Of a stretch of 64,000 bases of DNA, positions 7,750 through 57,733 are shown one piece after another; the stretch's first letter is position 1, and every line of letters starts with the position of its first letter. The notes beneath the pieces are model-generated. The model did not search any database and was not told the DNA's origin. It saw only the letters and a program-made list of their open reading frames with translations. This stretch comes from an uncultured Planctomycetales bacterium (lineage in GTDB: Bacteria > Planctomycetota > Phycisphaerae > UBA1845 > CAIVHJ01), in assembly GCA_964619935.1 (NCBI GenBank), contig CAZUGO010000014.1, positions 51,169 through 115,168 on the forward strand, written 5' to 3'. Both the position numbers and the translations under genes were made by a program.

Positions 7750-8781
7750 GTGCCCGACGAACCGGCCTCAACTTCAGCGCCCGACGTCCTCACCGCTGAC
7801 GCATTCTGCGCGACCTGCGGCTACAGCCTGCGAACGCTCAGCCCCGCGGCCCGCTGCCCGGAGTGTGGCACGCCGGTCAGTGCCTCCGCGCCCACCGCCG
7901 AGGTCGAACCGGTGATCGACGGCATCAGCCCGGCCTCCCCAGGCACGGTTTGCTGTAACTGCCAGGCGGCGATCGAGGGCCGCCACCGCCATCAGTTCTG
8001 CCGCTCGTGCGGAACGCCCCTGTGGGCGACCATTCCGACGGTCTGGCTGCGGTGGTGCGATCCGCTTTGGCTGCAGCGGGTACGTTCGGCCATCACCTGG
8101 TGGCTGTGGACCCTGCTGATCAGCTTTGTGCTGGCATTCGGGGGAGGCGTGGTGGGCGTCATCTGGGGCGCCCGCGGCTCACCGATCTCGGCCCGGGGCT
8201 CGATGATCAGCATCGGCCTGACCAATGTCGTCATGCTGATCCTGCACCTGGTTGTGGTTTACCGACTGTCCACGCCACATCCGGGCAGCCGCATCCAGGA
8301 CACACCGACACTCCGCGGGATCACCCGCGGGTTCGCCCTTTATGCATTGCTGGCCGCCGCCGCGATGCAAGGGGTCCTGCTGGGCGGCGGATCCGCGCCG
8401 ACCATCACGGCGCTGTCCGTGCTGAGCACCCCGGCGCTGCTGTCCACCATCGGCGCCTTCCTGTATGTTCGCGGGCTGGCCTGTCGCATCCCCAACCGCA
8501 AACTGATCGAGCGCCTCACCCTTTTGATGTGGACCTACGGTTCGTTGATGGTCGCCATGCAGGCTTTGGGTCTGATCTCGCTGCAGGCCCTGGACCTCGA
8601 CGGCGGGATCGCGCCGGCCCCAAGTCTCGGACCGCAAATGCTGGTCGGTTGCGCATCCGGGGTCGTCGGGCTGGTGCTGTTGCTCTGCCAGGGCGCCCTG
8701 GCCGTCCTGCTGTTCACGCTGCGGCGGGTCGTGTTGCAGGCCACCCAATCCGCCCGCGCAGAATCGGAGTCGCGACCGTGA
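7750..8781 (+). CDS. polytopic membrane protein with two N-terminal zinc-ribbon motifs
   Basis: ORF 7273..8781. The part before 7654 is antisense to paaC, so I propose the GTG at 7750 as start (uncertain). Motifs CATCGYSL..CPECG and CCNCQ..CRSCG are followed by at least 6 hydrophobic helices. Confidence 0.55.
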   Translation: MPDEPASTSAPDVLTADAFCATCGYSLRTLSPAARCPECGTPVSASAPTAEVEPVIDGISPASPGTVCCNCQAAIEGRHRHQFCRSCGTPLWATIPTVWLRWCDPLWLQRVRSAITWWLWTLLISFVLAFGGGVVGVIWGARGSPISARGSMISIGLTNVVMLILHLVVVYRLSTPHPGSRIQDTPTLRGITRGFALYALLAAAAMQGVLLGGGSAPTITALSVLSTPALLSTIGAFLYVRGLACRIPNRKLIERLTLLMWTYGSLMVAMQALGLISLQALDLDGGIAPAPSLGPQMLVGCASGVVGLVLLLCQGALAVLLFTLRRVVLQATQSARAESESRP

Positions 8782-8943
8782 GGGCGGCCACAAGTCCTGC
8801 CGGATCAAGGATCGACACAACCGGCCACATAACAACGGCTTGCGCCTCCTGCCGCCTGACTTGGGTGCCGCGCAGGCCGAAGTTTGCCGGAATCTTGTGG
8901 CGGGAATCCCTACTGCCACGCATCTCAACCCATGAGAAGCGCT

Positions 8944-8949
8944 TATAAT
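8944..8949 (+). promoter_or_regulatory. candidate -10 hexamer TATAAT upstream of the YHS gene pair
   Basis: A perfect TATAAT in an intergenic region of a high-GC genome, about 90 nt upstream of the ATG at 9038 (RBS GAGGAGGA). No convincing -35 element. Confidence 0.3.
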
Positions 8950-9037
8950 CCCCGGAATTCGGCGCCCAGCGCCACGAAACGATTTTCTTGACCGCCCGAT
9001 CCGAGTCGGTGCCAACCGCTAGAGGAGGAACTGGATC

Positions 9038-9670
9038 ATGCGAACCCTGTCGGCCCTCATCATTTCTCTGTGCTGTGTCCCGCCAACCGTCGCGCTCGCT
9101 GGAAATCCGGCCGGCGCCACTGAAGCGCTGGTGCTGCCCAACTGCCCGGTAATGGATGAGCCCATCGATCTCAGCATCAGCACCAGGACCGACGACGGCC
9201 CGGTGTTCTTCTGTTGCAGTGGGTGTATCAAGAAGTACACCGCGAACCCACAGAAATATGCCGCTCGGGTTGCAGCCCAACGCACAGGCCTGGAGAACCG
9301 CCCCAAGGTCCAGGTCGCCTGTCCGGTCAGCGGCGAGCCGGTCAAGTCCAGCGTCTCGGTCGAGCACGACGGGCGGAAAATCCTGTTCTGCTGCCCGCAG
9401 TGCGTCGACAAGTTCAAGGCCGACCCCGCCAAGTATCAGGCAGCGCTGGCCAACAGCTATACCTATCAAACCCGCTGTCCGGTCATGGACAAGGCAATCG
9501 ACCCCGCCGCCTTCAACGTCCTGCCTACCGGCCAGAAGATCTACTACTGCTGCAAGGGTTGCGATAAAAAGCTGCTCAAAGACCCTGCAAAGTACGCCCC
9601 CAAGCTGGCCGCCCAGGGCATCCACTTGGACATCCAGAAGCTGCTCGAGGCCGGAGCGTCCGGCGGATGA
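9038..9670 (+). CDS. secreted protein with three tandem Cys-rich YHS/TRASH-like modules
   Basis: Strong RBS GAGGAGGA and a signal peptide MRTLSALIISLCCVPPTVALA. Three repeats of CPV(M/S)xEP...(F/Y)(F/Y)CCxxCxxK(F/Y)xxxPxKY. Confidence 0.8.
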   Translation: MRTLSALIISLCCVPPTVALAGNPAGATEALVLPNCPVMDEPIDLSISTRTDDGPVFFCCSGCIKKYTANPQKYAARVAAQRTGLENRPKVQVACPVSGEPVKSSVSVEHDGRKILFCCPQCVDKFKADPAKYQAALANSYTYQTRCPVMDKAIDPAAFNVLPTGQKIYYCCKGCDKKLLKDPAKYAPKLAAQGIHLDIQKLLEAGASGG

Positions 9671-10434
9671 TCCGGGGTGGCGAAGGCATGCTCGACCCGT
9701 CCACCTGCGGACACGGTGCCACCGTTGGGAGGATCGCCGCCTGGGCGGTGCTGCTGTGCGCCAGCGCTGCCCCGGCGGTGCACGCCCAGCCACTGAACGA
9801 ACGGTGTCCGGTAATGACCGAGGAGCCGGTCGACCCCGCGATCACCGTGGTCTACCAGGGCAAGCCCGTGGCCTTCTGCTGCGACACCTGCCTGGAGAAG
9901 TTCAAGGCCAACCCCGACAAGTACCTGGCCCGTCTACCGCAATTCGCCGCCGCCGCCGCTGACGGCGCTGCAAACGGGCCGGCCACCGAGAAGCACTCGG
10001 CGGTGCCCTGGAGCGGGCGGGTTCATCCCGCCGTGGTTCATTTTCCGCTGGTTGGCATCCCCTTGGCCCTGCTTGGCTACCTGCTGTGGCTGATCACCGG
10101 CCAACAGTCGTTCGCCCGTGCCGACGTGGTTCCGCTGGCGGTCGGAACCCTCGGCGCCGTGACCGCCGTGCTCACGGGCGGCGTGGCCCACGATCACATG
10201 CGCTTCAGCGAAACCCTCCACGAAATCGTCGAGCGCCATGAGTTCTGCTCGACCACCGCCATGATCCTGGCCCTGGCGCTGTCGGCCCTGCGTGCCTGGC
10301 GCTGGAAGCGGCTGTCCGGTGGATGGCGGTGGGTGTACCTCTCCGGCCTGGGTGTGGCCACCATTCTGCTGGCCGTGACCGGCTACCTGGGCGGCAGCCT
10401 GGTCTTCGGCCCCGACCACCTGGCGTGGTCCTGA
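9667..10434 (+). CDS. membrane protein: N-terminal YHS-like module fused to a DUF2231-like 4-TM domain
   Basis: Its start overlaps the upstream stop (ATGA). Fourth copy of the module: CPVMTEEPVD...FCCDTCLEKFKANPDKY. This is followed by HPAVVHFPLVGIPLALL and further TM helices. Confidence 0.75.
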   Translation: MIRGGEGMLDPSTCGHGATVGRIAAWAVLLCASAAPAVHAQPLNERCPVMTEEPVDPAITVVYQGKPVAFCCDTCLEKFKANPDKYLARLPQFAAAAADGAANGPATEKHSAVPWSGRVHPAVVHFPLVGIPLALLGYLLWLITGQQSFARADVVPLAVGTLGAVTAVLTGGVAHDHMRFSETLHEIVERHEFCSTTAMILALALSALRAWRWKRLSGGWRWVYLSGLGVATILLAVTGYLGGSLVFGPDHLAWS

Positions 10435-18079: not shown

Positions 18080-18523
18080 TCAGCGGTTCTTTCCGAGCAT
18101 TTCCAGCCGGCGCTCGGCTTCGCGTTTGCGCAGCGAGCGCACCGCGACCAAGGCGGCCAGTTGTTCTTTCCGGGGCTTGGTCTTGCCGCTCTCCCAGTTA
18201 TAGATGGTAATGGGATGCACGCCGACCAACTCGGCATAACGAGGAGCAGACAGCCCCAGCTTCTTGCGATGGGCTTTGAGCCAGGCCGGCGAGAACCGTG
18301 CGCCTTCCGCCAGTTCCTCGGGAGCCTTGTGGGCCACCCGCCTGCGCTCCTGGCTGCGCAGAAAGGACACGTCTTTCTCCAGTGCCGAGAGCTTGCGTTT
18401 GAGTTCGGCGATATCACGCCGATGTTGCGTGGCGGCCCGCTTGGTGGTGGTCACCTGGGCCTTGATCTGTTTTCGCGATATCCTGGCGATCTCGTCCTTC
18501 ATGACTTGGGCGAGGTTGGGCAT
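18080..18523 (-). CDS. XRE-type helix-turn-helix protein with N-terminal coiled coil
   Basis: ORF 18080..18544, start trimmed to MPNLAQVMKDE, preceded by AAGGAGG. HTH segment LSAPRYAELVGVHPITIYNWESGKTKP. Confidence 0.7.
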   Translation of the reverse strand: MPNLAQVMKDEIARISRKQIKAQVTTTKRAATQHRRDIAELKRKLSALEKDVSFLRSQERRRVAHKAPEELAEGARFSPAWLKAHRKKLGLSAPRYAELVGVHPITIYNWESGKTKPRKEQLAALVAVRSLRKREAERRLEMLGKNR

Positions 18524-18638
18524 GGTGAGCCTCCTTCTTGGCAATCACACCGCCCGACGGCGTGGCGTCGGGTTGGGCAGATGATCAGACAATCCTCCTG
18601 CAGCAGCGCGGTTCCGGCGTTCCGGCGGATCCGCTCAC

Positions 18639-19661: not shown

Positions 19662-19706
19662 TCGTGGATCTCCGACAACGCTTCACCAATTCACGAAGGA
19701 CCACCT

Positions 19707-19712
19707 ATTATA
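19707..19712 (-). promoter_or_regulatory. candidate -10 hexamer TATAAT upstream of paaA
   Basis: Plus strand reads ATTATA, so the minus strand reads TATAAT, about 45 nt upstream of the paaA ATG (19661). It sits in a lower-GC intergenic stretch. Confidence 0.35.
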
Positions 19713-19788
19713 GCCAGGATGAGCACAATCACCAGCTTCGTCAAAACTGGCGAACAATTGCTGCCGCCAATTCCTGCGGCGAAGCAAC

Positions 19789-20571
19789 TCACACTGGCTT
19801 ATCGCCATCCAGCGCCGCGATTTCGGAGGCCGCGACCGCCCGCGACTCAGCTTCCTGAATGGCATCGGCATAACGATCGGAACGCGGCACTCCGACGTCA
19901 AGCTTGATCCGCTTGCGAAGCTCGACTCTAAGTCCGCCGCTGCCAGCAAGTTCCGGAGGGATCACACAAACCACTTTTCTCGGAAATATCTGCAAGTACT
20001 GCTGAACACGGTGGTACGGCTCCGTTCCGTCCATTGCCGCAAGGAACACGCCCTCATCAACCCGCGCGCGATTGAACTTGAGGCGGTGGCCGATGAGTTC
20101 CAGTGCGCCGCCGGCCTGGTAGGCCCCATCCTGCCATTGATTCAATCCACCGATGAAACCTCGAACGGCATCGATCTGAGGATCAGCCGGTCGCGACTGG
20201 ACCTGGTCGCGGCTCAAACGGCCGCCGGCAGTCCGGACCTCTTCACGCAATTTGGGCGGAAACACCCACGAAACGGTCAAACGGACGTCCTCATCCAGAA
20301 TCCGCTCCGGCCGCTGATCGAAGACCCCTTTGAGCCCCAACCGAGAACGGCCCAACGGGCCCAATTCACACTCCCGCCCTTCCGCAGCACAGGCCACCAC
20401 CCAGGTCGCCGCCCGCTCCAACACCGCCAGGGCATCGGCCCGAGTCACGGTCGACGACCGCTCGGCAAACGCCAGAAAGGCGTCGAACCCAAGCGCCCCA
20501 GCAGTATGCAGCACCAGCCGATACCGCCCTCCGGCAATCACCGAAGGCACCGAACTCACCTTCACACTCAT
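19789..20571 (-). CDS. HU-like DNA-binding domain plus DUF4469 (Ig-like) protein
   Basis: ORF 19789..20703, start trimmed to MSVKVSS, preceded by GGAGGA. The N-terminal part resembles bacterial HU-CCDC81-type domains. C-terminal GGALELIGHRLKFNRARVDEGVFLAAMDGTE...VVCVIPPELAGSGGLRVELR fits the DUF4469 pattern. Assigned from memory of the family, not by search. Confidence 0.5.
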   Translation of the reverse strand: MSVKVSSVPSVIAGGRYRLVLHTAGALGFDAFLAFAERSSTVTRADALAVLERAATWVVACAAEGRECELGPLGRSRLGLKGVFDQRPERILDEDVRLTVSWVFPPKLREEVRTAGGRLSRDQVQSRPADPQIDAVRGFIGGLNQWQDGAYQAGGALELIGHRLKFNRARVDEGVFLAAMDGTEPYHRVQQYLQIFPRKVVCVIPPELAGSGGLRVELRKRIKLDVGVPRSDRYADAIQEAESRAVAASEIAALDGDKPV

Positions 20572-20806
20572 TCCGCAATCCTCCACAAGCCATTGGAGAC
20601 AAGACCACCAGAACCGCGAAGCCTTATACCTTATATATACCAAACTATCAAACATTGTGTTTGGCTTATGATTGGTTTCGATGTCCGATCTCCAAGAAAG
20701 CATATCACGTATTACTCCTTTAATTAGAACGAGTTACATCGCTACTTGCGCCTTCCTGGCCAGAAGGCCAGTCCCTGATTAAACACGCCGCTGAGATTCT
20801 TGCACC

Positions 20807-21070
20807 GTCGACCGGGTCGTTTCTCCAAGTCGACCGGGTCGTTCTGCCAAGTCGACCAGGTCGTTCTGCCAAGTCGACCAGGTCGTTCTGCCAAGTCGAC
20901 CAGGTCGTTCTGCCAAGTCGACCAGGTCGTTCTGCCAAGTCGACCAGGTCGTTCTGCCAGGTCGACCAGGTCGTTCTGCCAAGTCGACCAGGTCGTTTCG
21001 CCAGGTCGACCGGGTCGTTTTGCCAGGTCGACCGGGTCGTGTTGCCGGATCGACTGGGTCGGGTTAACAA
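20807..21070. repeat. 12 x 22-bp perfect-phase tandem repeat (consensus GTCGACCAGGTCGTTCTGCCAA)
   Basis: Units start at 20807 + 22n. Units 3-6 and 8 are identical and the edge units are degenerate. Each unit contains the palindrome CGACC-N-GGTCG. A 22-nt period is not a multiple of 3, so a coding repeat is unlikely. Confidence 0.95.
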
Positions 21071-21134
21071 ATGACCGGACGGCTGTGGGGTGGCCCCCCT
21101 CCCCCTACGCGATATGGCTCTGGCGGCGTTGCCC

Positions 21135-21380
21135 TTACGGTCGGCAGCAGGCAATGGCTCCCAACCGAGTCAGATCTACAGGTAGAATCGGCGGGTCGCG
21201 ACCGGCAAGGGCCAGGAGGCGGCCGTCTGGTGAAAAAGCAATGGGCCCCGCAACGGATGTGTACCCAAGCCGGGCAACCCTTGCTGCCGGCTGCCGGGTG
21301 CCGGACCGCCAGATGATGTGTTCGGCCTCACGGGTGGCCAAGTCCTTGCCATCCGGGCTGAAACCGAAGTTCGCGCCTTT
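21135..21380 (-). pseudogene. WD40/beta-propeller repeat gene fragment
   Basis: Minus-frame translation gives ...ANFGFSPDGKDLATREAEHIIWRSG...VAGPIAFSPDGRLLALAGRDPPI. These are two FSPDG-type WD40-like blades with no plausible start and no N-terminal part. Confidence 0.45.
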
Positions 21381-21508
21381 TCTGCGGCGGACTGCGCTTC
21401 CAGCGCTTCCTCGCGGGCATCTTTTTTGCCGCCTTTCTTGGTCTCCAGGTTTGCCTTCTTCTTGGCGGCCTCCTTGTACTTCTCCCAGGCCTCCTTGACG
21501 GCCTGGTC

Positions 21509-22146
21509 ACAGGCCTCGCCGGGTCGCATGGCGGTCAGCATCTGCAACCGACACATCGCCGCAACGGGCGGCCGCATGAACGGCAGGGCGGCCGCGACGT
21601 CGTTTTCCGATGCGGGCTGTACGGGAGCGCGTTCAACGGCCAGGCTGCGACCCTTCCGCAGCGGTTCCAGCAGCTTCAACTCCGCAACGACGATGGCGGG
21701 TACAAGATTCTGCTGGGCGCCCCACTTGAACATCAAGATGAGCTAGTGCGGCAGACGCCGTCCGTGATCATCGTTTCCCGGACCGCCCGCAACTCGGCAC
21801 GGCCGAAGTCTGCAACCGGCATGGATCCATACAACGAGACCAACGGCCGCAGTGCAGAGCGGATCCAACTCAGCTCGCCGGTCGGCCGCCCGTCTTTGCG
21901 ATAGTAGACCGTGGCGTGATCCCAGTAGGCCGAGCACAGTTCCGTAATGATGTAGTCCGATGCGTGACGGCGGCGACGTGGGGCTCCGGTGGCGTGTTCG
22001 GCCAGGGCCCTGCGGTAAAGCTCCACACTCTCCGTGGTGCCGTATCTACCCAGGTAGATCCGCCGGCCTTCGATCTCGACGAACGCCCGGGCGGGTTTGC
22101 CCGCTGGCTGCTTGTGGCAACGGTATTTGGGAACTTTCTGAAACAT
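21509..22146 (-). pseudogene. tyrosine recombinase (phage-type integrase), frameshifted and C-terminally truncated
   Basis: 21733..22146 encodes an integrase N-terminal arm/SAM-like region (PKYRCHKQPAGKPARAFVEIEGRRIYLG...ITELCSAYWDHATVYYRKDGRPTGE). After a frameshift near 21736 the homology continues (FKWGAQQNLVP...LQMLTAMRPGEAC) and then stops. The rest of the catalytic domain is absent. It lies next to the 3' end of tRNA-Ala. Confidence 0.7.
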
Positions 22147-22269
22147 GGGTGGGCTCCTTTCTCTTGCCGGAAATCGTGTCCGATTGACACGTTTCTGGCT
22201 GTGAGTTTAAGGGCCGCACCACTTTCGGTGGGTATCGCAACTAGCGATTCGGCACTGACTTACGATTCA

Positions 22270-22342
22270 TGGAGCCAGAGGGACTCGAACCCTCGACCTC
22301 TTGCATGCCATGCAAGCGCGCTCCCAACTGCGCCATGGCCCC
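22270..22342 (-). tRNA. tRNA-Ala (anticodon GGC)
   Basis: Manual cloverleaf fold of GGGGCCA-TG-GCGC-AGTTGGGA-GCGC-G-CTTGC-ATGGCAT-GCAAG-AGGTC-GAGGG-TTCGAGT-CCCTC-TGGCTCC-A. U33 is present and the anticodon is GGC. The G3:U70 alanine identity pair is present. CCA is not encoded. Confidence 0.93.
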
Positions 22343-22523
22343 GTGGGATGCGGCGTCCGGGTAGCGCCGCAAGCGGTATTAAATGGGATGTCGGGTCCCA
22401 AGTCAACAACCGCCGGGAATGGCTGCGGCATTCGCCCTGCGAAGGAGCGGCCAAGGTCCGATCCGGCGACGAGAAGCCTGTCGGGCGGAGCCGAGCGGGG
22501 CTTCAGGACACACGGCGGTCAGT

Positions 22524-25500
22524 CTAGTTATAGTGAGCCGCGCCGTACAGTTCCAGGCTGTCGCGGCCGAGCAGGCCGGTGACTGCGTCGCAAAACGGTT
22601 GGGAGGCGCTGACCGACAAGCCGCGATCGCAGCGGACCGCGGCCAGCAGGTTGTCGGAGGTGGTGATCCGCAGGACCACCGGCTTATCGCCGCTGTACGC
22701 CTTGATGACCGAGTGCAGCCGCTGCATGATGTCGGGCTGATGGCAGCCGCTGGTCAGGCTGATGACCACCTGGGCGGTCAGCTTCTCAGCGGCCTGGTCC
22801 AATGGAATCACCTCCACCACCCGCAGCGCCGGGTCTTCGCGGCGGCGGTCGACCGTACCCTTGATGAATACGGCATTGTCCAGCACCAGATCGGGCCGAA
22901 AACGATCCAGGTCGGACGGAAACACGATGGCCTCGACCGAGCCGCGGATGTCCTCCAAAGTGACGATGCTCATTCGCGAACCGGCTTTGCGGCCGCGCTT
23001 GGTGAGCACGGTGCGAACCTTGGTGATGATCCCACCCATGATGATCTCAGTGTCGGCCGGCAGTTGCCCGATGCGGTCACTGGTCGCCGTGCCGAAGCGC
23101 TGGATCAGGTCGGCGTACTGAGCCAGCGGGTGGTTGGTGATGTAGAAACCCAGGGTGTCCTTCTCGAACTTCAGCAGCTCGGCCTCGGTCCACTGCTCGT
23201 CGTCCGGAATGGTCGGATAGGTGACCTCGGGGATGTCGTCGTCGGCCCCGAGCATCTCCAGCAGCGACATCTGGCCGGACAGGCGGTCACGCTGGGAGCG
23301 CTGGCCGCCCTCGAAAGCCTGGTCGAGAACCACCATCATCGCCTTGCGCATGGCCCCGGTGCAATCAAACGCGCCGCACTTGATCAAGGCTTCGATGGCC
23401 GACCGATTGACCGTGGCGAGATCCACCCGCTCGCAGAACTCAAAGATGCTGGTGAACGGTCCCTGTTCGTCGCGGGCGGCAATGGTGGCCTGGACGGCCT
23501 TCTCGCCGACGCCCTTGATGGCGCCCAGCCCGAAACGGACTTGGCCCCGGGCCGGCGGGGTCGGGGGCGCCAGCGGATTGTACACCGGCGTGAAGTCGTA
23601 GTTGGACACGTTGACGTCGGGCGGCCTCACCGAGATGCCCATGGCCCGGCAGGCCTCGATGTACTCCACGACCTTGTCGGTGCTGCTCATCTCGAAGGTC
23701 AGCAGGGCGGCCATGAACTCCACGGGGTAGTAGGTCTTCAGGTACGCGGTCTGAAAAGCAATCAAGGCGTAGCCGGCGGAGTGGGCCTTGTTGAAGGCGT
23801 AGCCGCCAAAGCGCAGAATGTCCTCGAAAATCTGCTCCGCCGTGGGCCGAGGCACGCCGTTGGCAGCACAGCCGTCCAGGAACGGGCCGCGCATGGCCTC
23901 GATCATCGAGGTCTTCTTCTTGCTGATGGCCTTGGCCAGGCGAAACGCCTTTTTCAACTCAATGTTGCCCAGGCGGTGAACCAGGCGCGAGACCTGTTCC
24001 TGGTAGACCATGATGCCGAAAGTCTCGCGCAAGATCTCGGTCATCAAGGGGTGCGGCGTGTCCCAGGCCTCGCCGTGCTTGCGGGCCACGTAGGCTTCGA
24101 TGTTGACCATCGGGCCGGGTCGAAACAGGGCGTTGGCTGCAATCAGATCCTCGATGCGGTTCGGTCGCATCTTGCGAACCACGTCGCGCATGCCGTCGGA
24201 CTCAAACTGAAAAATGCCCTTGGTGTTGCCTTCGGCGAACAAGGCATAGACCTGCTGGTCGTTCAGGTCCAGGTGCTCCAGGTCGATGGGCGGATGGCCG
24301 GCCTGCTCGGCGAGTCGGCGGGCCCGTTCGAGGGTGGTCAGCGTGCGCAGGCCCAGGAAGTCCATTTTCAGGAGCCCGACCTTCTCCACGGTCGGCCCAT
24401 CATATTGCGTGACGATCTGCTGGTGGGCGCCGCTGCCGTTGCCGCCGGGTGGTTTGTACAACGGCAGAAAGTGGTTCAGCGGTTGATCGGCGATGACCAC
24501 CCCGGCGGCGTGCACCCCGGCATGACGGGCCAGGCCCTCGATCCGCTTGGCGATCTCGATGACCTTGGCGACCTGCGGATCCTCCCGGCAGAGCCGCTGG
24601 AGTTCGGGTTCGATGGACAAGGCCTTGGCGAGGGTCATGTGCAACTCGGCCGGAATCAAGCGCGACAGCCGGGTGGCCCGCTCGAAGTCGATGCCCAGCA
24701 CCCGGCAGACGTCTTTGACCGCCGCCCGGGCCTTCAGCGTTCCGAAGGTGATGATTTGGGCGACGTGGCCGTACCTGCTGCGGACGTAGTCGATGACCTT
24801 TTGGCGGCCGTCCTGGCAGATGTCGATGTCGATGTCCGGCATTTCATCGCGATCCGGATCCATGAACCGTTCGAAGTACAATCCGTAACGCAACGGCTCC
24901 GGGGTCGAGATGTCCAGGCAGTAGCCGACCACGGAACTGCATCCCGAGCCGCGGGCGCAGCACGGGATGCCCAAGCCACGGGCGTGGTTCATGAGGTCCC
25001 AGCAAATCAGGAAGTAGCTGCTGAAGCCCTTGCTGGAGATGACCTCCAGTTCGTACTCGATCCGCTCGCGAAGTTCGTCGGTGATCGCCTCATACTTGCG
25101 GGCAGCGCCCTGGTAGACCCGGTCGCGCAGATACGCGGCGTCGGAGCGGGCGTCGGGAACCGTGTACACCGGGGCGTGTCGCGTGGAGAAGTCCAGCTCC
25201 AGGTCACACATCTCCACGATGCGCAGCGTGTTGGCGAGCACCTCGGGGTGCTCGGGAAATAGGGTCGCCATCTCCTCGGCGGACTTCAGATAGAACTGGT
25301 CGCTCGGGAACTTGAACCGCTTGTCGTCCGAGACCAGGCTGCCGGTGGAGATGCAGCACAGCACGTCGTGGGCCTCGACGTCGGTGTCGTCCAGATAGTG
25401 GACGTCGTTGGTGACAATGGTGCCGACCCCCAGCCGCTGGGCCATGTCGAACAACGCCGGGTTAATCTGTCGCTGTTCTTCAATGCCGTGGTCCTGGACC

Positions 25501-26033
25501 TCGATGAAAAAATGGTCCGATCCGAAGATTTTGAGGTACGCTTCGGCGGCGGTCTCGGCGAGTTGGCGATCGCGGTGGAGCAGGATCTGCGGGAGTTCGG
25601 CGCCGAGGCAGGTCGACGTACAGATCAAGCCGTCACTGAACTCCGCGAGGGTGTCTTTGTCGATGCGGGGCTTGTAGTAGAAGCCCTCCAGATACCCGAT
25701 GGAGGCCAGCTTCAAGAGGTTGCGGTAACCGGTGAGATTGCGGGCCAGCAGCAGCAGGTGGTAGCTATAATCCCCTCCGATACACCTGGCATCGCGGTCT
25801 TGGCGGCGCCCCGGGGCCAGGTAGGCTTCCATGCCGATAATCGGCTTGACCCCTGCGGCCGTGGCTGACGAAAAGAACTCTATGGCCCCGAATAGATTGC
25901 CGTGATCGGTGACGGCCACGGCCGGCATGCCCAGGTTCTTGACCTTGTGCACCAGTTGCTTGATCTCGGTGGCACCGTCGAGCAGGCTGTAATGGGTATG
26001 CACGTGGAGGTGTGCGAAACCAGGCGCGGTCAT
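22524..26033 (-). CDS. dnaE: DNA polymerase III alpha subunit
   Basis: ORF 22524..26063, start trimmed to MTAPGFAHLHVHTHYSLLDG (PHP domain). About 1170 aa with homology apparent across its full length. Confidence 0.95.
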   Translation of the reverse strand: MTAPGFAHLHVHTHYSLLDGATEIKQLVHKVKNLGMPAVAVTDHGNLFGAIEFFSSATAAGVKPIIGMEAYLAPGRRQDRDARCIGGDYSYHLLLLARNLTGYRNLLKLASIGYLEGFYYKPRIDKDTLAEFSDGLICTSTCLGAELPQILLHRDRQLAETAAEAYLKIFGSDHFFIEVQDHGIEEQRQINPALFDMAQRLGVGTIVTNDVHYLDDTDVEAHDVLCCISTGSLVSDDKRFKFPSDQFYLKSAEEMATLFPEHPEVLANTLRIVEMCDLELDFSTRHAPVYTVPDARSDAAYLRDRVYQGAARKYEAITDELRERIEYELEVISSKGFSSYFLICWDLMNHARGLGIPCCARGSGCSSVVGYCLDISTPEPLRYGLYFERFMDPDRDEMPDIDIDICQDGRQKVIDYVRSRYGHVAQIITFGTLKARAAVKDVCRVLGIDFERATRLSRLIPAELHMTLAKALSIEPELQRLCREDPQVAKVIEIAKRIEGLARHAGVHAAGVVIADQPLNHFLPLYKPPGGNGSGAHQQIVTQYDGPTVEKVGLLKMDFLGLRTLTTLERARRLAEQAGHPPIDLEHLDLNDQQVYALFAEGNTKGIFQFESDGMRDVVRKMRPNRIEDLIAANALFRPGPMVNIEAYVARKHGEAWDTPHPLMTEILRETFGIMVYQEQVSRLVHRLGNIELKKAFRLAKAISKKKTSMIEAMRGPFLDGCAANGVPRPTAEQIFEDILRFGGYAFNKAHSAGYALIAFQTAYLKTYYPVEFMAALLTFEMSSTDKVVEYIEACRAMGISVRPPDVNVSNYDFTPVYNPLAPPTPPARGQVRFGLGAIKGVGEKAVQATIAARDEQGPFTSIFEFCERVDLATVNRSAIEALIKCGAFDCTGAMRKAMMVVLDQAFEGGQRSQRDRLSGQMSLLEMLGADDDIPEVTYPTIPDDEQWTEAELLKFEKDTLGFYITNHPLAQYADLIQRFGTATSDRIGQLPADTEIIMGGIITKVRTVLTKRGRKAGSRMSIVTLEDIRGSVEAIVFPSDLDRFRPDLVLDNAVFIKGTVDRRREDPALRVVEVIPLDQAAEKLTAQVVISLTSGCHQPDIMQRLHSVIKAYSGDKPVVLRITTSDNLLAAVRCDRGLSVSASQPFCDAVTGLLGRDSLELYGAAHYN

Positions 26034-26278
26034 GGTCCGAGAGTCCTCACCAGGGGCGGGCATGGGTTCCCAGTGGCGATCGTAAGATCATTCCCCCCCG
26101 GATTCAACGTCCAGTGCGCTGCGACCGGCGCCGGCGATTGTGAGTTATCCGGTCTTCACAGCGACCGCGGGGCAGAAGCGGTCGTGCTTTGCCAGGGCGT
26201 ACGTTACAATACCGCAGGGGTTTGGACGGGGGCCGGCCGGCCGATACAATTGCACCCTTGGCAAAGAGGTCCGTGCGC

Positions 26279-55193: not shown

Positions 55194-56114
55194 ATGTCTG
55201 AGCTGCGCTACTCGATCGTGGACGCCTTCACCGCCGAACCGTTCAGCGGCAATCCCACCGCCGTGGTGCTGGAGGCCGGCGGGTTGACCGACGGCCGCCT
55301 GCAGACCATTGCCCGGGAGTTTAACGTCAGCGAAACGACCTTTGTCTCGGAACCCTCGGTTTCTGGAGCGGCAGTGGCCATCCGCTGGTTCACCCCGGCA
55401 GCCGAAGTGAACCTATGCGGCCACGGGACCATCGGGGCCGTTCACGCCCTGATCCGATCCGGACGGTTCGTGGACCTCCCGGACGACAAGGGAACGGTGC
55501 TGCCGATCCAAACCCGCAGCGGCATCCTGACCGTCCGCTGTGAGCGCTTGACGCGGTCCGGCGGCTCCACCTTCCTGGTGTGGTTGGATCTGCCCCAGCC
55601 CCAGCTTCGCCCCAAGACCATTGCCCCGCGGATCTGGGGTGGACTCTTAGGCGTGCCGGTCGATGCGTTTGATCGGGACCTGCCCAGCGCCCAGACCCAG
55701 GACGGAGACGTGCTGGTCTTCTTGCGGTCTTTGCCGCCACTGATGGAAGCAGCGCCGGATTTTCGAGCGCTGGCCAAGTTCAGTCGCCAGCAGAAGGTCC
55801 GCGGCTGGTGTGTCGCGACCACCGCCACCCTGACGCCGTCGATCAACGTGCAATCGCGCTTCTTTGCCCCGGCGATCGGCATCGATGAGGATCCGGTGAC
55901 CGGCAGTGTCCATGGCCCATTGGCCGCGTACCTCGTTGCTGCCGGGCGCGTCCCCCTGCACGGCCGGTCGGCCGCCCTGTCGTGCACCCAGTCGAATCAT
56001 CAAGCCCGAGCCGGGCTGGTCCGCGTGGTGGCGAACCAGACCGATTCAGCGAACTGGGCGGTCCGGATCGGCGGCGAATGCGTGACGGTGATGTCCGGGA
56101 CCCTTCACGTCTGA
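55194..56114 (+). CDS. PhzF-family isomerase
   Basis: YSIVDAFTAEPFSGNPTAVVL, FNVSETTFV and RWFTPAAEVNLCGHGTIGA. Confidence 0.85.
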   Translation: MSELRYSIVDAFTAEPFSGNPTAVVLEAGGLTDGRLQTIAREFNVSETTFVSEPSVSGAAVAIRWFTPAAEVNLCGHGTIGAVHALIRSGRFVDLPDDKGTVLPIQTRSGILTVRCERLTRSGGSTFLVWLDLPQPQLRPKTIAPRIWGGLLGVPVDAFDRDLPSAQTQDGDVLVFLRSLPPLMEAAPDFRALAKFSRQQKVRGWCVATTATLTPSINVQSRFFAPAIGIDEDPVTGSVHGPLAAYLVAAGRVPLHGRSAALSCTQSNHQARAGLVRVVANQTDSANWAVRIGGECVTVMSGTLHV

Positions 56115-56211: not shown

Positions 56212-56362
56212 AAAAATGGTATCTTCATTTTGTTGAAACGGTATCTTCATTTTACCCAAATGGTACCATCGTTTGAACAAAATGGTGGTACCATTTGAAC
56301 AAAATGGTGGTACCATTTGAATAAAACCGTGGTACCATTTGAATGGAACCGGAGTACCGTCC
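56212..56362. repeat. AT-rich array of 7 degenerate units of about 22 bp centred on TGGTACCA palindromes
   Basis: Site starts are 56217 and 56239 (GGTATC variants), 56261, 56286, 56308 and 56330 (perfect TGGTACCA), and 56352 (GAGTACCG). Spacings are 22, 22, 25, 22, 22, 22. The unit is close to AAAATGGTGGTACCATTTGAAC. It lies between two convergent stop codons. Confidence 0.9.
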
Positions 56363-56440
56363 AGCAAGAGGGCCGTCGGGGCGGCTGGACCCTGCCGGCG
56401 GGGCGGTGCCTGGCCCCGGCGGGTCGGGGAACTTCCCGAC

Positions 56441-57733
56441 TCAGCGTCGCCTTGGGGGCCGGAACTTGCTTCCCAGGGTCTTGCGTGGCTTGCTCATGGG
56501 CGCTTCCTCGGGTCCGCCGCCTGCGGTTTCGAACACGGCGCCCTGCAGCCGGGGGGCCCGCCTGGGGGCTTCGGGCGGCTTTTCTCGGGGTGCTGACGGC
56601 TCGAACTGGGGCACCACATGGGGCTCAACCTGCTTGTTGATCAACATCTCGACGGCGGTCAGCAGGGGGCCTTCCTCGCTGGTCACAAAAGTGATGGCCC
56701 GGCCAAAAGCGCCCATCCGGGCGGTGCGGCCGACCCGATGGACGTAGATCTGCGGATCCTTGGGGATATCGTAATTAATGATGTGACTGATGTCCTGGAC
56801 GTCAATCCCGCGGGCGGCCAGATCGGTCGCCACCAGGACTTTCAGCTTGTGGCGGCGGAAGCGGTCCATGACCCGCTCACGCTTGCTTTGCACCAGGTCG
56901 CCGTGGATCTCCTTAACGTCCAGACCCTGACCGTGGAGCTTCTTGGCCAGCTTGCGAGCGGCGTGCTTGGTGTTGGTGAACACAATGGCCAGACTGGGGT
57001 CTTCCCCCTGGATGAGCATCCACAGCAGGCGGTACTTGTCCCACGGTTCCACCGAGCAGTACACTTGGTGGATTTTCTCGACGGTCAAATCGTCCTGCGA
57101 GACGTTGACCTCCCGCGGTTGGTTCATGAACTGCTGGGCGAGCCGCTTGACATCCGAACTCAGGGTCGCGGACACGAAGATCGTCTGGTGGCGGTGCTTG
57201 ATTCGGCCCAGAACATTGCGGATGTCGTCGATGAACCCGATATCAAGCATGCGGTCCACTTCGTCAAGGACCACGTGCCGCAGCTCACCGATATCGATTA
57301 CCCGCCGATTCAGCAGATCCAGAATACGGCCGGGGGTGGCCACAATGATGTGCGTCCGCCGGCCGAGCAGCTTGATCTGGTGTTTCACCGCCTGACCGCC
57401 GTAGACCGGAACCGCCTGGAACACCGTGAAGCAGCTCAACCGCCGGATCTCAGCGGTCACCTGGACGGCCAGTTCACGCGTCGGAACCAGGACCAAGGCC
57501 TGCAGCGGCCTGGACTCGTCCAGTTGTTGCAGAATCGGCAGCGCGAAGGCCGCGGTCTTGCCCGTTCCGGTTCGAGCCTGGCCGAGCACGTCCAGACCTT
57601 CGATTGCCAGCGGAATCATCTCGCGCTGAATATCGGTCGGCGCCTCGAATCCTACCTTGTGCAAGGCCTGTAGCAGGGCCGGTTCGAGGCCCAGGGCAGC
57701 AAAGGCTTCGGGCAGATGTGGATGTGGTTTCAT
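56441..57733 (-). CDS. DEAD-box RNA helicase (motif II = DEVD)
   Basis: ARTGTGKTAAF (motif I), VLDEVDRML, SAT, HRVGRTAR, and a basic C-terminal tail. Confidence 0.92.
   Translation of the reverse strand: MKPHPHLPEAFAALGLEPALLQALHKVGFEAPTDIQREMIPLAIEGLDVLGQARTGTGKTAAFALPILQQLDESRPLQALVLVPTRELAVQVTAEIRRLSCFTVFQAVPVYGGQAVKHQIKLLGRRTHIIVATPGRILDLLNRRVIDIGELRHVVLDEVDRMLDIGFIDDIRNVLGRIKHRHQTIFVSATLSSDVKRLAQQFMNQPREVNVSQDDLTVEKIHQVYCSVEPWDKYRLLWMLIQGEDPSLAIVFTNTKHAARKLAKKLHGQGLDVKEIHGDLVQSKRERVMDRFRRHKLKVLVATDLAARGIDVQDISHIINYDIPKDPQIYVHRVGRTARMGAFGRAITFVTSEEGPLLTAVEMLINKQVEPHVVPQFEPSAPREKPPEAPRRAPRLQGAVFETAGGGPEEAPMSKPRKTLGSKFRPPRRR

Follow-up and report, generated by a model that had tools for sequence, protein, structure and literature searches.

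Operator arrays through which small dimeric repressors control their own synthesis include OR1 to OR3 of phage lambda, the heptad arrays of the omega protein, and the parC site, which serves ParR as both operator and centromere. The gamma origin of R6K carries seven 22-bp direct repeats that are bound by the pi protein, and iterons are typically asymmetric. Plasmid centromeres are built from repeats as well, namely, 12 copies of a 43-bp repeat, each with an inverted repeat, in sopC of F, 11-bp repeats in parC of R1, and 20-bp repeats in parC of pSK41.

Proteins of the HU-HIG family, in which an HU-fold domain is joined to an Ig-like domain, were described as a Bacteroidetes expansion (Burroughs et al. 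2017, PMC5499826). From the structure 4FMR, it was argued that the HU clasp is covered by the Ig domain, and the family members were considered unlikely to be sequence-specific transcription factors; for Ig-fused members, binding to RNA or protein was suggested (Burroughs et al. 2017, PMC5499826). Our literature search found neither published binding data for the HU-HIG family nor mention of a phased palindromic array in front of HU-Ig genes. Here, we describe such an array in a 64-kb stretch of DNA (the window). Considering its sequence and that of homologous loci, we think it probable that the array arose by tandem amplification of an operator or loading array that belongs to the adjacent HU-Ig gene, the product of which would bind to it.

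The repeat array and its surroundings

The array occupies positions 20807 to 21070 and consists of 12 units of 22 bp with the plus-strand consensus GTCGACCAGGTCGTTCTGCCAA. It lies upstream of a minus-strand gene (19789 to 20571), at a distance of 236 to 499 bp from the start codon. Tandem Repeats Finder (TRF) reported a period-22 array at 20807 to 21040 (10.6 copies, 95% matches, score 382), a score that no other repeat in the window approaches, and cutting the sequence at 20807+22n gave 12 exactly phased units. The unit table bears out the original prediction of phased units that diverge outward from a homogeneous center: units 3 to 6 and unit 8 are identical to the consensus, units 2 and 7 differ from it at 1 base, units 9 and 10 at 3, unit 1 at 4, unit 11 at 5, and unit 12 at 8, while the flanks are unrelated to the unit (12 to 18 mismatches). 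When up to 3 mismatches were allowed, matches to the 22-mer within the window were confined to the array, and shuffled sequences gave none. Two long open reading frames (ORFs) that cross the array (20720 to 21154, minus strand, and 20800 to 21498, plus strand) had been proposed to be artifacts; they exist, but the repeat is read in all three frames, and the GC3-based gene call selected neither.

Between 20809 and 21039, the array contains 11 perfect 11-bp palindromes, CGACC-N-GGTCG, with starts at 20809+22n (n = 0 to 10), which we presume to be dimer-binding sites. A palindrome had been claimed for every unit; this holds for 11 of the 12, the one in unit 12 (21051 to 21061) being degenerate (CGACTGGGTCG). 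The sequence CGACCNGGTCG is present in 11 copies in the array, compared with 0.26 copies expected across the whole 64-kb window. Between units 1 and 11, half-sites carry no substitution (0/110), compared with 13/121 elsewhere (p=2e-4); the variation falls in the spacers and in the central N, a position that also varies across the wider site family described below. If a helical turn is taken as 10.5 bp, a 22-bp period spans approximately 2.1 turns, which leaves adjacent sites nearly in phase. The proposal that all palindromes lie on one DNA face is thus correct for neighbors, but the drift over 12 units amounts to about one full turn, and the sites are not strictly on one face.

The stretch from 20837 to 20959 (123 bp) is perfectly periodic, and an independent short-read (Logan) contig ends within the array. 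For these two reasons, the count of identical units in the center depends on the assembly, and the copy number of the array may have been misassembled. In single-stranded form, the DNA of the array folds more stably than shuffled sequences do (z=-5.8), an excess that is expected from any set of palindromes.

Outside the array, the window holds three further CGACCNGGTCG sites, all of them isolated and with coding-like flanks (Asp-Leu-Val), and no other phased pair; we therefore rejected a regulon within the window. A dispersed satellite, named in the original prediction as a finding that would overturn it, was not seen either: among 185,579 species-representative genomes, a palindrome pair at 22 bp was found at only two loci, both in Actinomycetota metagenome-assembled genomes (MAGs), with one match each. 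The second array reported at 56.2 kb does exist and does have a 22-bp period, but its unit is unrelated, its flanking genes are convergent, and the window contains no HU-Ig paralog, so that the parallel does not extend beyond the period.

Between the array and the gene lies an AT-rich spacer (20572 to 20806; 46% GC, minimum 33%). Its AT-rich core had been pointed out previously, correctly so: positions 20600 to 20760 have 42% GC, compared with 65% for the window overall, and include the lowest 100-bp GC value (33%) of the whole 64 kb. Read in the orientation of the gene (minus strand), the spacer contains a promoter-like pair, TTGATA (20651 to 20646) and TATAAG (20628 to 20623) separated by 17 nt, and a Shine-Dalgarno sequence, GGAGG (20584 to 20580). 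The promoter-like pair is a consensus match made by eye and is absent from the list of a promoter scanner, which applies a stricter rule. An inverted repeat, CTGGCC-TTCT-GGCCAG, is located between array and gene at 20756 to 20771. The array lies approximately 155 bp upstream of this sole promoter-like match and overlaps no recognizable promoter in the window. GACC-type sites contain no -10-like hexamer; therefore, the autoregulatory geometry of the relatives described below is not preserved here.

On its other side, the array adjoins a nonsyntenic segment (21071 to 22269, minus strand) that is absent from the syntenic position in two related loci (L057 and L058). It contains two orphan ORFs (21733 to 22146 and 21176 to 21736) without a Pfam, PHROG, or PDB match, and a search of 5.8 billion proteins with an orphan ORF returned only the ORF itself. 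The segment is bounded by a tRNA-Ala (GGC) gene (22270 to 22342, minus strand; ARAGORN; Rfam tRNA, 65.1 bits), the only Rfam match in the window, which is followed by dnaE (22524 to 26063, minus strand). Of the decayed tRNA-linked island that had been postulated for this region, the tRNA gene and the nonsyntenic segment stand. An integrase remnant at 21176 to 22146 would be putative at most: we found neither an integrase signature nor homologs, and the integrase-like "RPGE" box is a by-eye impression; an att-like direct repeat of the tRNA-Ala 3' end was not found, and the homologous HU-Ig loci showed no linkage to tRNA genes.

The HU-Ig gene and the sites upstream of its relatives

The product of the adjacent gene (260 amino acids), which we presume to be the binder of the array, had been assigned as an HU-like DUF4469 protein, and Pfam, a profile match to 4FMR, and Foldseek all agree with that assignment. 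In Pfam, the protein scores 24.3 bits for DUF4469 (PF14734), above the cutoff of 22.6 bits, and 24.3 bits for HU-HIG (E=3.4e-5), just below the cutoff of 26.2 bits; a clade I homolog (P0003) reaches 26.3 bits for HU-HIG, just above it. A profile of the family aligned with PDB 4FMR over its full length (residues 10 to 227; E=1.1e-10). The AlphaFold2 model (pLDDT 86.5) consists entirely of beta structure beyond approximately residue 130, where pLDDT values are mostly above 90. Foldseek returned 4FMR as its best match, again over the full length (E=1e-13), followed by HU proteins, to which the N-terminal domain of the model aligned with target TM-scores of 0.65 to 0.76. The protein hence combines an N-terminal HU/IHF-fold domain of the HU-HIG type with a C-terminal Ig-like DUF4469 domain, the same two-domain architecture as that of the known HU-HIG/HU-plus-Ig proteins (PF18291 and PF14848 with PF14734; 4FMR is BVU_2165 of Bacteroides vulgatus), with which it aligns in full. 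The gene is intact and full length and retains the invariant residues of the family.

The family profile matched approximately 2,800 clusters at 50% identity, and within one assembly (SDBT01...), copies are spread over about 20 different contigs. HU-Ig genes stand alone, without conserved operon partners, and have multiplied in a lineage-specific manner. The hosts of the clade are Planctomycetota-type and other environmental genomes.

Relatives of the gene at 36 to 59% identity (clade I) carry three to six palindromic sites just upstream of the start codon, with a motif family of ATTY-GAYA-N-TRTC-RAAT and a center-to-center spacing of 21 to 22 bp. The positions are stereotyped, typically -139/-117/-96/-74 from the start codon, and in one subgroup, all sites are 21 bp apart. 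Defining a strict site as GAY-N3-RTC and a chain as three or more such sites at 21- or 22-bp spacing, we found chains in 10 of 17 nonredundant clade I upstream regions, compared with none of 405 control windows (225 from the same loci and 180 from the 64-kb window, with no chain in either set). The association with DUF4469 genes that the original prediction had proposed to look for is thereby present. We used this motif test with its controls because an unbiased search for palindrome chains, while recovering the family arrays, was noisy in GC-rich DNA. TRF found the arrays at three loci (L006, L011, and L035) without being given a motif, and relatives checked after the pattern had been defined showed four sites, one of them degenerate (P0022, locus L049), and three sites (P0024, locus L050).

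By sequence, the unit of the window is a GACC half-site variant of the clade I motif. When scored with a site matrix that was derived only from the homologous loci and excluded the window units, its copies reach 8.5 to 14.5 bits, and GACC is the third most common half-site (15 of 122). Perfect palindromes account for 25 of the 61 sites; half-sites vary largely independently of each other, and C..A combinations are common. At the locus of the closest homolog (P0002, L046), four sites follow one another at exactly 22 bp, and their core is shifted to AYA-N-TRT. Across the family, the motif changes with protein divergence, from GATA, GACA, and GACC in clade I to CATA at L046 and CAYT-N-ARTG, spaced at 22 bp, at the more distant L035, a covariation that is confounded by shared descent.

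In several relatives, the sites overlap or adjoin promoter-like hexamers, as judged from consensus matches made by eye. At seven loci (L004, L015, L017, L019, L024, L031, and L033), a TTGAC[G/T]-N17-TAnnnT element has its -10 hexamer inside site 1, and at three others (L011, L013, and L022), TATAAT abuts site 4. In clade II (PF14848 type, approximately 30% identity), arrays are absent from 9 of 10 loci, as well as from P0023 and P0025. The exception in that clade is L035, with a motif of its own; the array is otherwise clade specific.

Across these homologs, the sites are conserved in linkage with the presumed regulator gene. The clade loci share no tRNA and no recurring partner gene; their neighbors differ at every locus. 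Because the neighbors are not conserved, it is the gene and the array alone that travel together in the loci compared, and the binder should therefore be either the HU-Ig product or a factor universal to all hosts. A universal host factor would not explain why the motif drifts with the protein. The suggestion of an operator array or protein-loading platform, also part of the original prediction, is strongly supported by this recurrence of one phased palindrome family before relatives of the gene in unrelated contexts.

Alternative explanations for the array

The array might have descended from the family operator and yet be a purposeless relic, a neutral slippage product that was displaced from its promoter by a rearrangement or insertion. 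Its position at a synteny breakpoint among orphan ORFs, the loss of overlap with a promoter-like element, the identical central units, which indicate a very recent expansion, and the copy number of 12, an outlier compared with 3 to 6 at other loci, all fit such a history. We nevertheless regard it as unlikely, since the older outer units have mutated only in their spacers and central N, leaving the half-sites free of substitutions, and since the neighboring gene has kept its full length and the invariant residues of its family. A quite unlikely scenario, in our estimation, is that the sites are real operators recognized by another protein, encoded elsewhere, that represses the HU-Ig gene. A blockage of the HU clasp by the Ig domain, as argued for 4FMR (PMC5499826), and the failure of our literature search to find an experiment tying the family to sequence-specific binding would be in line with it. 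Such a regulator would have to be universal and yet codiverge with the HU-Ig protein, as the loci stem from diverse organisms that differ in GC content, the motif shifts in step with the protein, and no cotraveling regulator gene was seen at loci whose neighbors differ everywhere. The palindromes could also act at the RNA level, as leader hairpins that are bound by the HU-Ig protein or serve as attenuators. Relatives with a -10 hexamer in site 1 would indeed transcribe sites 2 to 4, RNA or protein has been suggested as a ligand of Ig-fused members (Burroughs et al. 2017, PMC5499826), and the array shows the folding excess described above, though any palindromes would be expected to do so. We find an RNA element hardly credible given that half-sites vary independently, with 25 of the 61 sites perfectly palindromic and nonpairing C..A combinations common, that the strict spacing of 21 to 22 bp fits the helical repeat of B-DNA, and that the array matches no Rfam family.

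The original prediction had recognized in this layout an iteron-type replication origin or a plasmid centromere, and neither was supported. An origin, whether chromosomal or integrated, in which the 22-bp repeats load an initiator beside an AT-rich unwinding element would account for 12 direct repeats that adjoin the lowest-GC spot of the window and for a minimum of the cumulative GC skew at 21,891. Still, a Rep-like, DnaA, DnaN, or ParAB gene was not found nearby, and Pfam and PHROGs showed no Rep family among the neighboring ORFs; the DnaA box TTATCCACA, with at most 1 mismatch, occurs three times in the window and not once within 10 kb of the array, and no DnaA-box cluster was found at up to 2 mismatches. 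A viral, plasmid, or phage derivation was rejected as well, as viral contigs contain no relative of the protein, and searches of 72,556 plasmids and 50,697 phages gave no match to the DNA or to the protein. Moreover, the units are palindromic, whereas iterons typically are not, and the same site family lies over putative single-gene promoters at more than 20 unrelated loci. As for the skew, which was computed within the 64-kb window alone, the plus strand switches from negative to positive between 21000 and 22300, with negative values in 11 of 11 2-kb bins to the left and positive values in 17 of 21 to the right, and the sign holds for genes on either strand. This switch coincides with the synteny break; since the paa operon continues at this place in relatives and the skew there stays as it was, the switch may be explained by the end of an inversion, and a synteny breakpoint would account for the minimum more simply than an origin. 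An iteron-type origin thus appears very improbable to us, and we give equally little weight to the related possibility that the array and its AT-rich neighbor form a working origin of this planctomycete chromosome, or an origin-associated nucleoprotein platform, organized by the HU-Ig protein rather than by DnaA alone, with the minimum at 21.9 kb marking the true origin and not an inversion scar. Phased tandem repeats with inverted repeats beside the gene for a small DNA-binding protein would also suit a partition site of the parC/sopC type, with the HU-Ig protein as the centromere-binding protein. The chromosomal setting between housekeeping genes, the lack of plasmid homologs, and the absence of a ParA-, ParM-, or TubZ-type NTPase gene beside the array and at the homologous loci make a centromere extremely improbable.

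A model for the array and comparison with known systems

Taken together, these considerations favor a cognate operator or loading array of the HU-Ig gene, and the array most likely represents docking sites of that protein rather than a replication origin. We propose that each palindrome is occupied by one HU-Ig dimer. With a spacing of two turns, neighboring dimers would come to lie on nearly the same face of the DNA and could polymerize cooperatively, perhaps via their Ig-like domains, into a short filament that covers the promoter and the early transcribed region. Such a filament over the promoter would allow the gene to be switched off sharply by its own product. Slippage or unequal exchange may have expanded the array of this genome to approximately 12 units, most recently in its center, and the array now sits 236 bp upstream of the start codon, from which it is separated by an AT-rich stretch that has promoter-like elements of its own. 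The array of the window is therefore probably a high-capacity upstream platform for loading or titration and not a classical operator overlapping its promoter.

For the function of the HU-Ig family, the conserved array provides the first concrete and testable candidate for a target sequence of such a protein, and the two-turn spacing suggests that binding may be cooperative and filament-like. Because it naturally offers the site in high copy number, the 12-unit array is convenient as a substrate, and it suggests that operator arrays can expand in the manner of minisatellites.

With the gamma origin of R6K, the array shares the 22-bp length, the tandem arrangement, and the adjacent AT-rich segment. 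In contrast to that origin, neither an initiator gene nor a DnaA box or an IHF-site context was found; the units contain a perfect palindrome, similarity to plasmids is missing, and homologous arrays overlap putative promoters of single chromosomal genes. The array resembles plasmid centromeres in that its 12 or so phased repeats contain inverted repeats and lie beside a gene for a DNA-binding protein, and in that the phasing is slightly off an integer number of turns, so that bound dimers would be coiled into a gentle superhelix; a partition NTPase gene and a plasmid context, by contrast, are missing.

The autoregulatory operator arrays resemble the loci of the relatives most directly, in that several similar sites, spaced by the helical repeat, appear to overlap the promoter of the presumed binder's own gene and are palindromic, as expected for dimers. 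The differences from classical repressors are the combination of an HU and an Ig fold and a set of three to six sites whose 21- to 22-bp spacing is stereotyped across the clade; the array of the window departs further from operator arrays, with 12 units that are detached from the promoter. As for the HU-HIG proteins as published, they are encoded by stand-alone genes with many divergent copies per assembly (PMC5499826), and the clade represented in the window follows the same pattern. What sets this clade apart from the published Bacteroidetes expansion is its origin from Planctomycetota-type and other environmental genomes and the conserved array of phased palindromes that precedes its genes.

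Structure of the array and its adjoining gene

By far the strongest repeat of the window in Tandem Repeats Finder (TRF) was a period-22 array at positions 20807 to 21040 (10.6 copies, 95% matches, score 382), and cutting the sequence at 20807 + 22n yielded 12 units, reaching to 21070. Units 3 to 6 and 8 are identical (GTCGACCAGGTCGTTCTGCCAA), mismatches per unit climb toward both array ends (1, 3, 3, 4, 5, and 8), and the flanks are unrelated to the unit sequence. TRF and the unit table therefore confirm the twelve phased units with diverging ends of the original prediction. With three or fewer mismatches, the 22-mer had no copy in the window outside the array. The palindrome CGACCNGGTCG, said to occur in every unit, is present in 11 copies rather than in all 12 units, compared with 0.26 expected in the whole window. 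Likewise, the proposal that all palindromes face one side of the DNA holds for neighbors, as 22 bp correspond to 2.1 turns (at 10.5 bp per turn) and place adjacent sites nearly in phase, but not for the whole array, across which the phase drifts by about one turn.

The identity of the central units argues for a recent expansion by slippage or unequal exchange. An independent Logan short-read contig (L003, from SRR10083321), whose first 50 bases correspond to window positions ~20805 to 20854, stops inside units 1 to 3; its end confirms the proximal edge of the array, which is not resolvable by short reads. Because of this break and the perfect periodicity of 123 bp at 20837 to 20959, the count of identical central units depends on the assembly.

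The start of the HU-Ig gene (19789 to 20571, minus strand) is 236 bp away from the array, and a GGAGG motif precedes the ATG by 8 nt. Against Pfam, its product scored 24.3 bits both for DUF4469, over the cut-off, and for HU-HIG, slightly under it. A profile of the protein and its relatives matched PDB 4FMR, a Bacteroides vulgatus HU + Ig-like protein, over its full length (E=1.1e-10), and a search with the AlphaFold2 model (pLDDT 86.5) returned 4FMR as the best hit (E=1e-13), followed by classical HU proteins. These results confirm the predicted HU-like/DUF4469 neighbor, which belongs to the HU-HIG / HU + Ig family. The predicted AT-rich stretch at 20600 to 20760 was also borne out, having 42% GC versus 65% in the window overall and containing the window's lowest-GC 100 bp (33%). 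Together with an inverted repeat (20756 to 20771), it separates the array from the gene, and it carries a promoter-like TTGATA-N17-TATAAG (20651 to 20623).

A second 22-bp array, suggested as a parallel, does exist at 56213 to 56366, but its ~7 units (AAAATGGTGGTACCATTTGAAC) are unrelated to those of the first array, and the window contains no HU-Ig paralogue. The genes on either side, one PhzF-like (55194 to 56114, plus strand) and one for a DEAD-box helicase (56441 to 57733, minus strand), point their 3' ends toward it, and, at 35% GC, it is the second lowest-GC spot of the window. Its best-conserved units carry a GG insertion, and the more diverged unit 3 has an intact 14-bp palindrome (AAATGGTACCATTT).

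Phased sites at homologous loci

Close relatives of the HU-Ig protein are few (clade I, 36 to 59% identity), and their loci were gathered from metagenomes and MAGs. With no motif supplied, TRF found 21- to 22-bp periodic arrays upstream of three HU-Ig genes (loci L006, L011, and L035). Using the pattern GAY-N3-RTC, we found three to six sites at 21/22-bp spacing before clade-I genes, compared with ~12 in the window array. Relative to the start codon, typical positions are -139, -117, -96, and -74, and in one subgroup all sites are 21 bp apart. Chains of at least three strict sites occurred in 10 of 17 non-redundant clade-I upstream regions, versus 0 of 225 control windows from the clade-I loci and 0 of 180 from the window. 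In most of the other upstream regions, this array is also present, but one or two of its sites are degenerate; L010 has a single site above threshold. Two further relatives came from an exhaustive profile search, and their upstream DNA was inspected only after the pattern had been defined: L049 has four sites, one of them degenerate, and L050 has three. The closest homologue (P0002, at L046) is preceded by four sites at an exact 22-bp spacing, their core being shifted to AYA-N-TRT, and the more distant L035 has a 22-bp array of five to six sites with a different palindrome, CAYT-N-ARTG (~600 to 870). Most clade-II relatives examined (~30% identity, strong PF14848 match) lack such arrays.

Neighboring genes differ at every HU-Ig locus (sulfatase, DUF4276/AAA pair, transposase, TIR-TPR protein, ion channel, and others), and no tRNA was found near the homologous loci. 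Only the HU-Ig gene and the array co-occur, with the motif drifting as the protein diverges. This comparative evidence strongly supports one option of the original prediction, an operator array or protein-loading platform tied to the adjacent gene.

The window unit itself, judged by its sequence, belongs to the clade-I site family. A site matrix built only from loci other than the window (consensus ATTCGATACTATCGAAT) carries information at G-A-Y-A and T-R-T-C but not at the center. Ten of the 12 window units, read as AAAC-GACC-N-GGTC-GACT, score 8.5 to 14.5 bits on it, and GACC is the family's third most frequent half-site (15/122), after GATA and GACA. Substitutions between window units fall in the spacer (13/121) and spare the half-sites of units 1 to 11 (0/110; Fisher p=2e-4), and the central N also varies; thus, the positions important across the family are protected within the window array.

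Several loci have additional features. At L006, the two arms of a perfect inverted repeat of 17 bp (CGACGCAAATCTTCCTC ... GAGGAAGATTTGCGTCG) enclose the four-site array (2797 to 2916), and a long hairpin-forming element lies between array and gene. At L035, a TCATTCG heptamer repeat (4.7 copies) directly precedes the start codon (gene start near 891). On each of about 20 contigs of one metagenome assembly (L010 to L033; SDBT01.../SDBS01...), a different clade-I HU-Ig gene is found together with an array, which looks like a lineage-specific multiplication, as described for Bacteroidetes HU-HIG genes. HU-Ig genes also often lie beside conflict-type genes, such as a NACHT-HEAT protein gene directly upstream (L055, 410 to 3705), transposase and TIR-TPR protein genes (L045, 3111 to 5941), and a DUF4276 + AAA_21 pair (L004, 11008 to 12871), which would fit the published "biological conflict" idea.

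Function of the sites and competing readings

By consensus match by eye, seven loci have TTGAC[G/T] followed, after 17 nt, by a TAnnnT hexamer within site 1, and at three others TATAAT abuts site 4. We propose that a dimer of the HU-Ig protein binds each palindrome and that the two-turn spacing would bring adjacent dimers into contact, perhaps via their Ig-like domains. An array spanning the promoter and early transcribed region could then mediate cooperative negative autoregulation. Variation in one half-site is largely independent of that in its partner; perfect palindromes account for only 25 of the 61 sites, and C..A combinations are frequent. This pattern fits a symmetric dimer on double-stranded DNA and opposes a reading of the sites as RNA hairpins. 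The window array, being detached from its gene and having GACC-type sites without a -10-like hexamer, probably serves upstream as a loading or titration platform of high capacity. Alternatively, it may be on its way to becoming a relic; its half-site conservation favors continued binding.

The original prediction also placed the array in a tRNA-linked island. A tRNA-Ala(GGC) (22270 to 22342, with dnaE next) is indeed present, but the two ORFs between array and tRNA, a putative integrase remnant, have no Pfam, PHROG, PDB, or protein-database relatives, and no att-like repeat was found. In two Phycisphaerae-type relatives (L057 and L058), whose PaaA is 80% and 84% identical to that of the window, PaaA is immediately preceded by the remaining paa operon genes, for thiolase and enoyl-CoA hydratases (8719 to 10000 and 8617 to 10000, respectively). 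The window contains none of these genes, and at 19662 to 22523 the HU-Ig gene, array, orphan ORFs, tRNA-Ala, and dnaE replace them; judging from this synteny breakpoint, the segment is foreign to its position next to PaaA. An Xre-type HTH gene (18080 to 18544, minus strand; its PHROG matches are phage repressors) separates PaaA from PaaB, a gap of only ~22 bp in the two relatives, and looks like a small insertion within the operon.

Within the limits of a 64-kb view, a true replication origin at the array and skew minimum is highly improbable. In its favor, cumulative G-C skew across the window is lowest at 21,891, less than 1 kb from the array. Plus-strand skew is negative in every one of the eleven 2-kb bins before 22 kb and, beyond that point, positive in 17 of 21, and this origin-type switch (~21000 to 22300) holds for genes of either strand. 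However, its position is precisely that of the synteny breakpoint, and in the relatives the skew does not change sign along the intact paa operon, making an inversion end the simpler account. The suggested iteron origin and plasmid centromere both lose ground on further evidence: we looked for Rep, Par, DnaA, and DnaN genes and found none, no DnaA boxes were found nearby, neither DNA nor protein matched 72,556 plasmids or 50,697 phages, and relatives of the HU-Ig protein were not found in viral contigs. Moreover, the units are palindromic, and the same site family lies over promoter-like sequences of lone chromosomal genes.

Relation to known systems

HU-HIG genes have been described as stand-alone and rapidly diversifying, and a role as sequence-specific regulators was thought unlikely, as the Ig domain narrows the HU clasp in 4FMR (Burroughs et al. 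2017, PMC5499826). Our literature search returned no paper with "DUF4469," and beyond that study, the only other mention of the family was a Treponema denticola transcriptome paper in which the HU-Ig-type gene TDE_2259 was differentially expressed (PMC12724145). A conserved phased operator array for one clade of the HU-HIG family therefore appears to be undescribed. The array offers the first concrete candidate DNA target for a large and enigmatic protein family, one open to simple experiment.

The 22-bp iterons of R6K and the 12 repeats with inverted repeats of F sopC resemble the window array in layout only, as the defining Rep gene and partition NTPase, respectively, were not found here. 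The general kind is a familiar one, a DNA-binding protein that controls its own gene through several operators; given the predicted binding, it would appear here in a new fold family and with an unusual minisatellite-like expansion.
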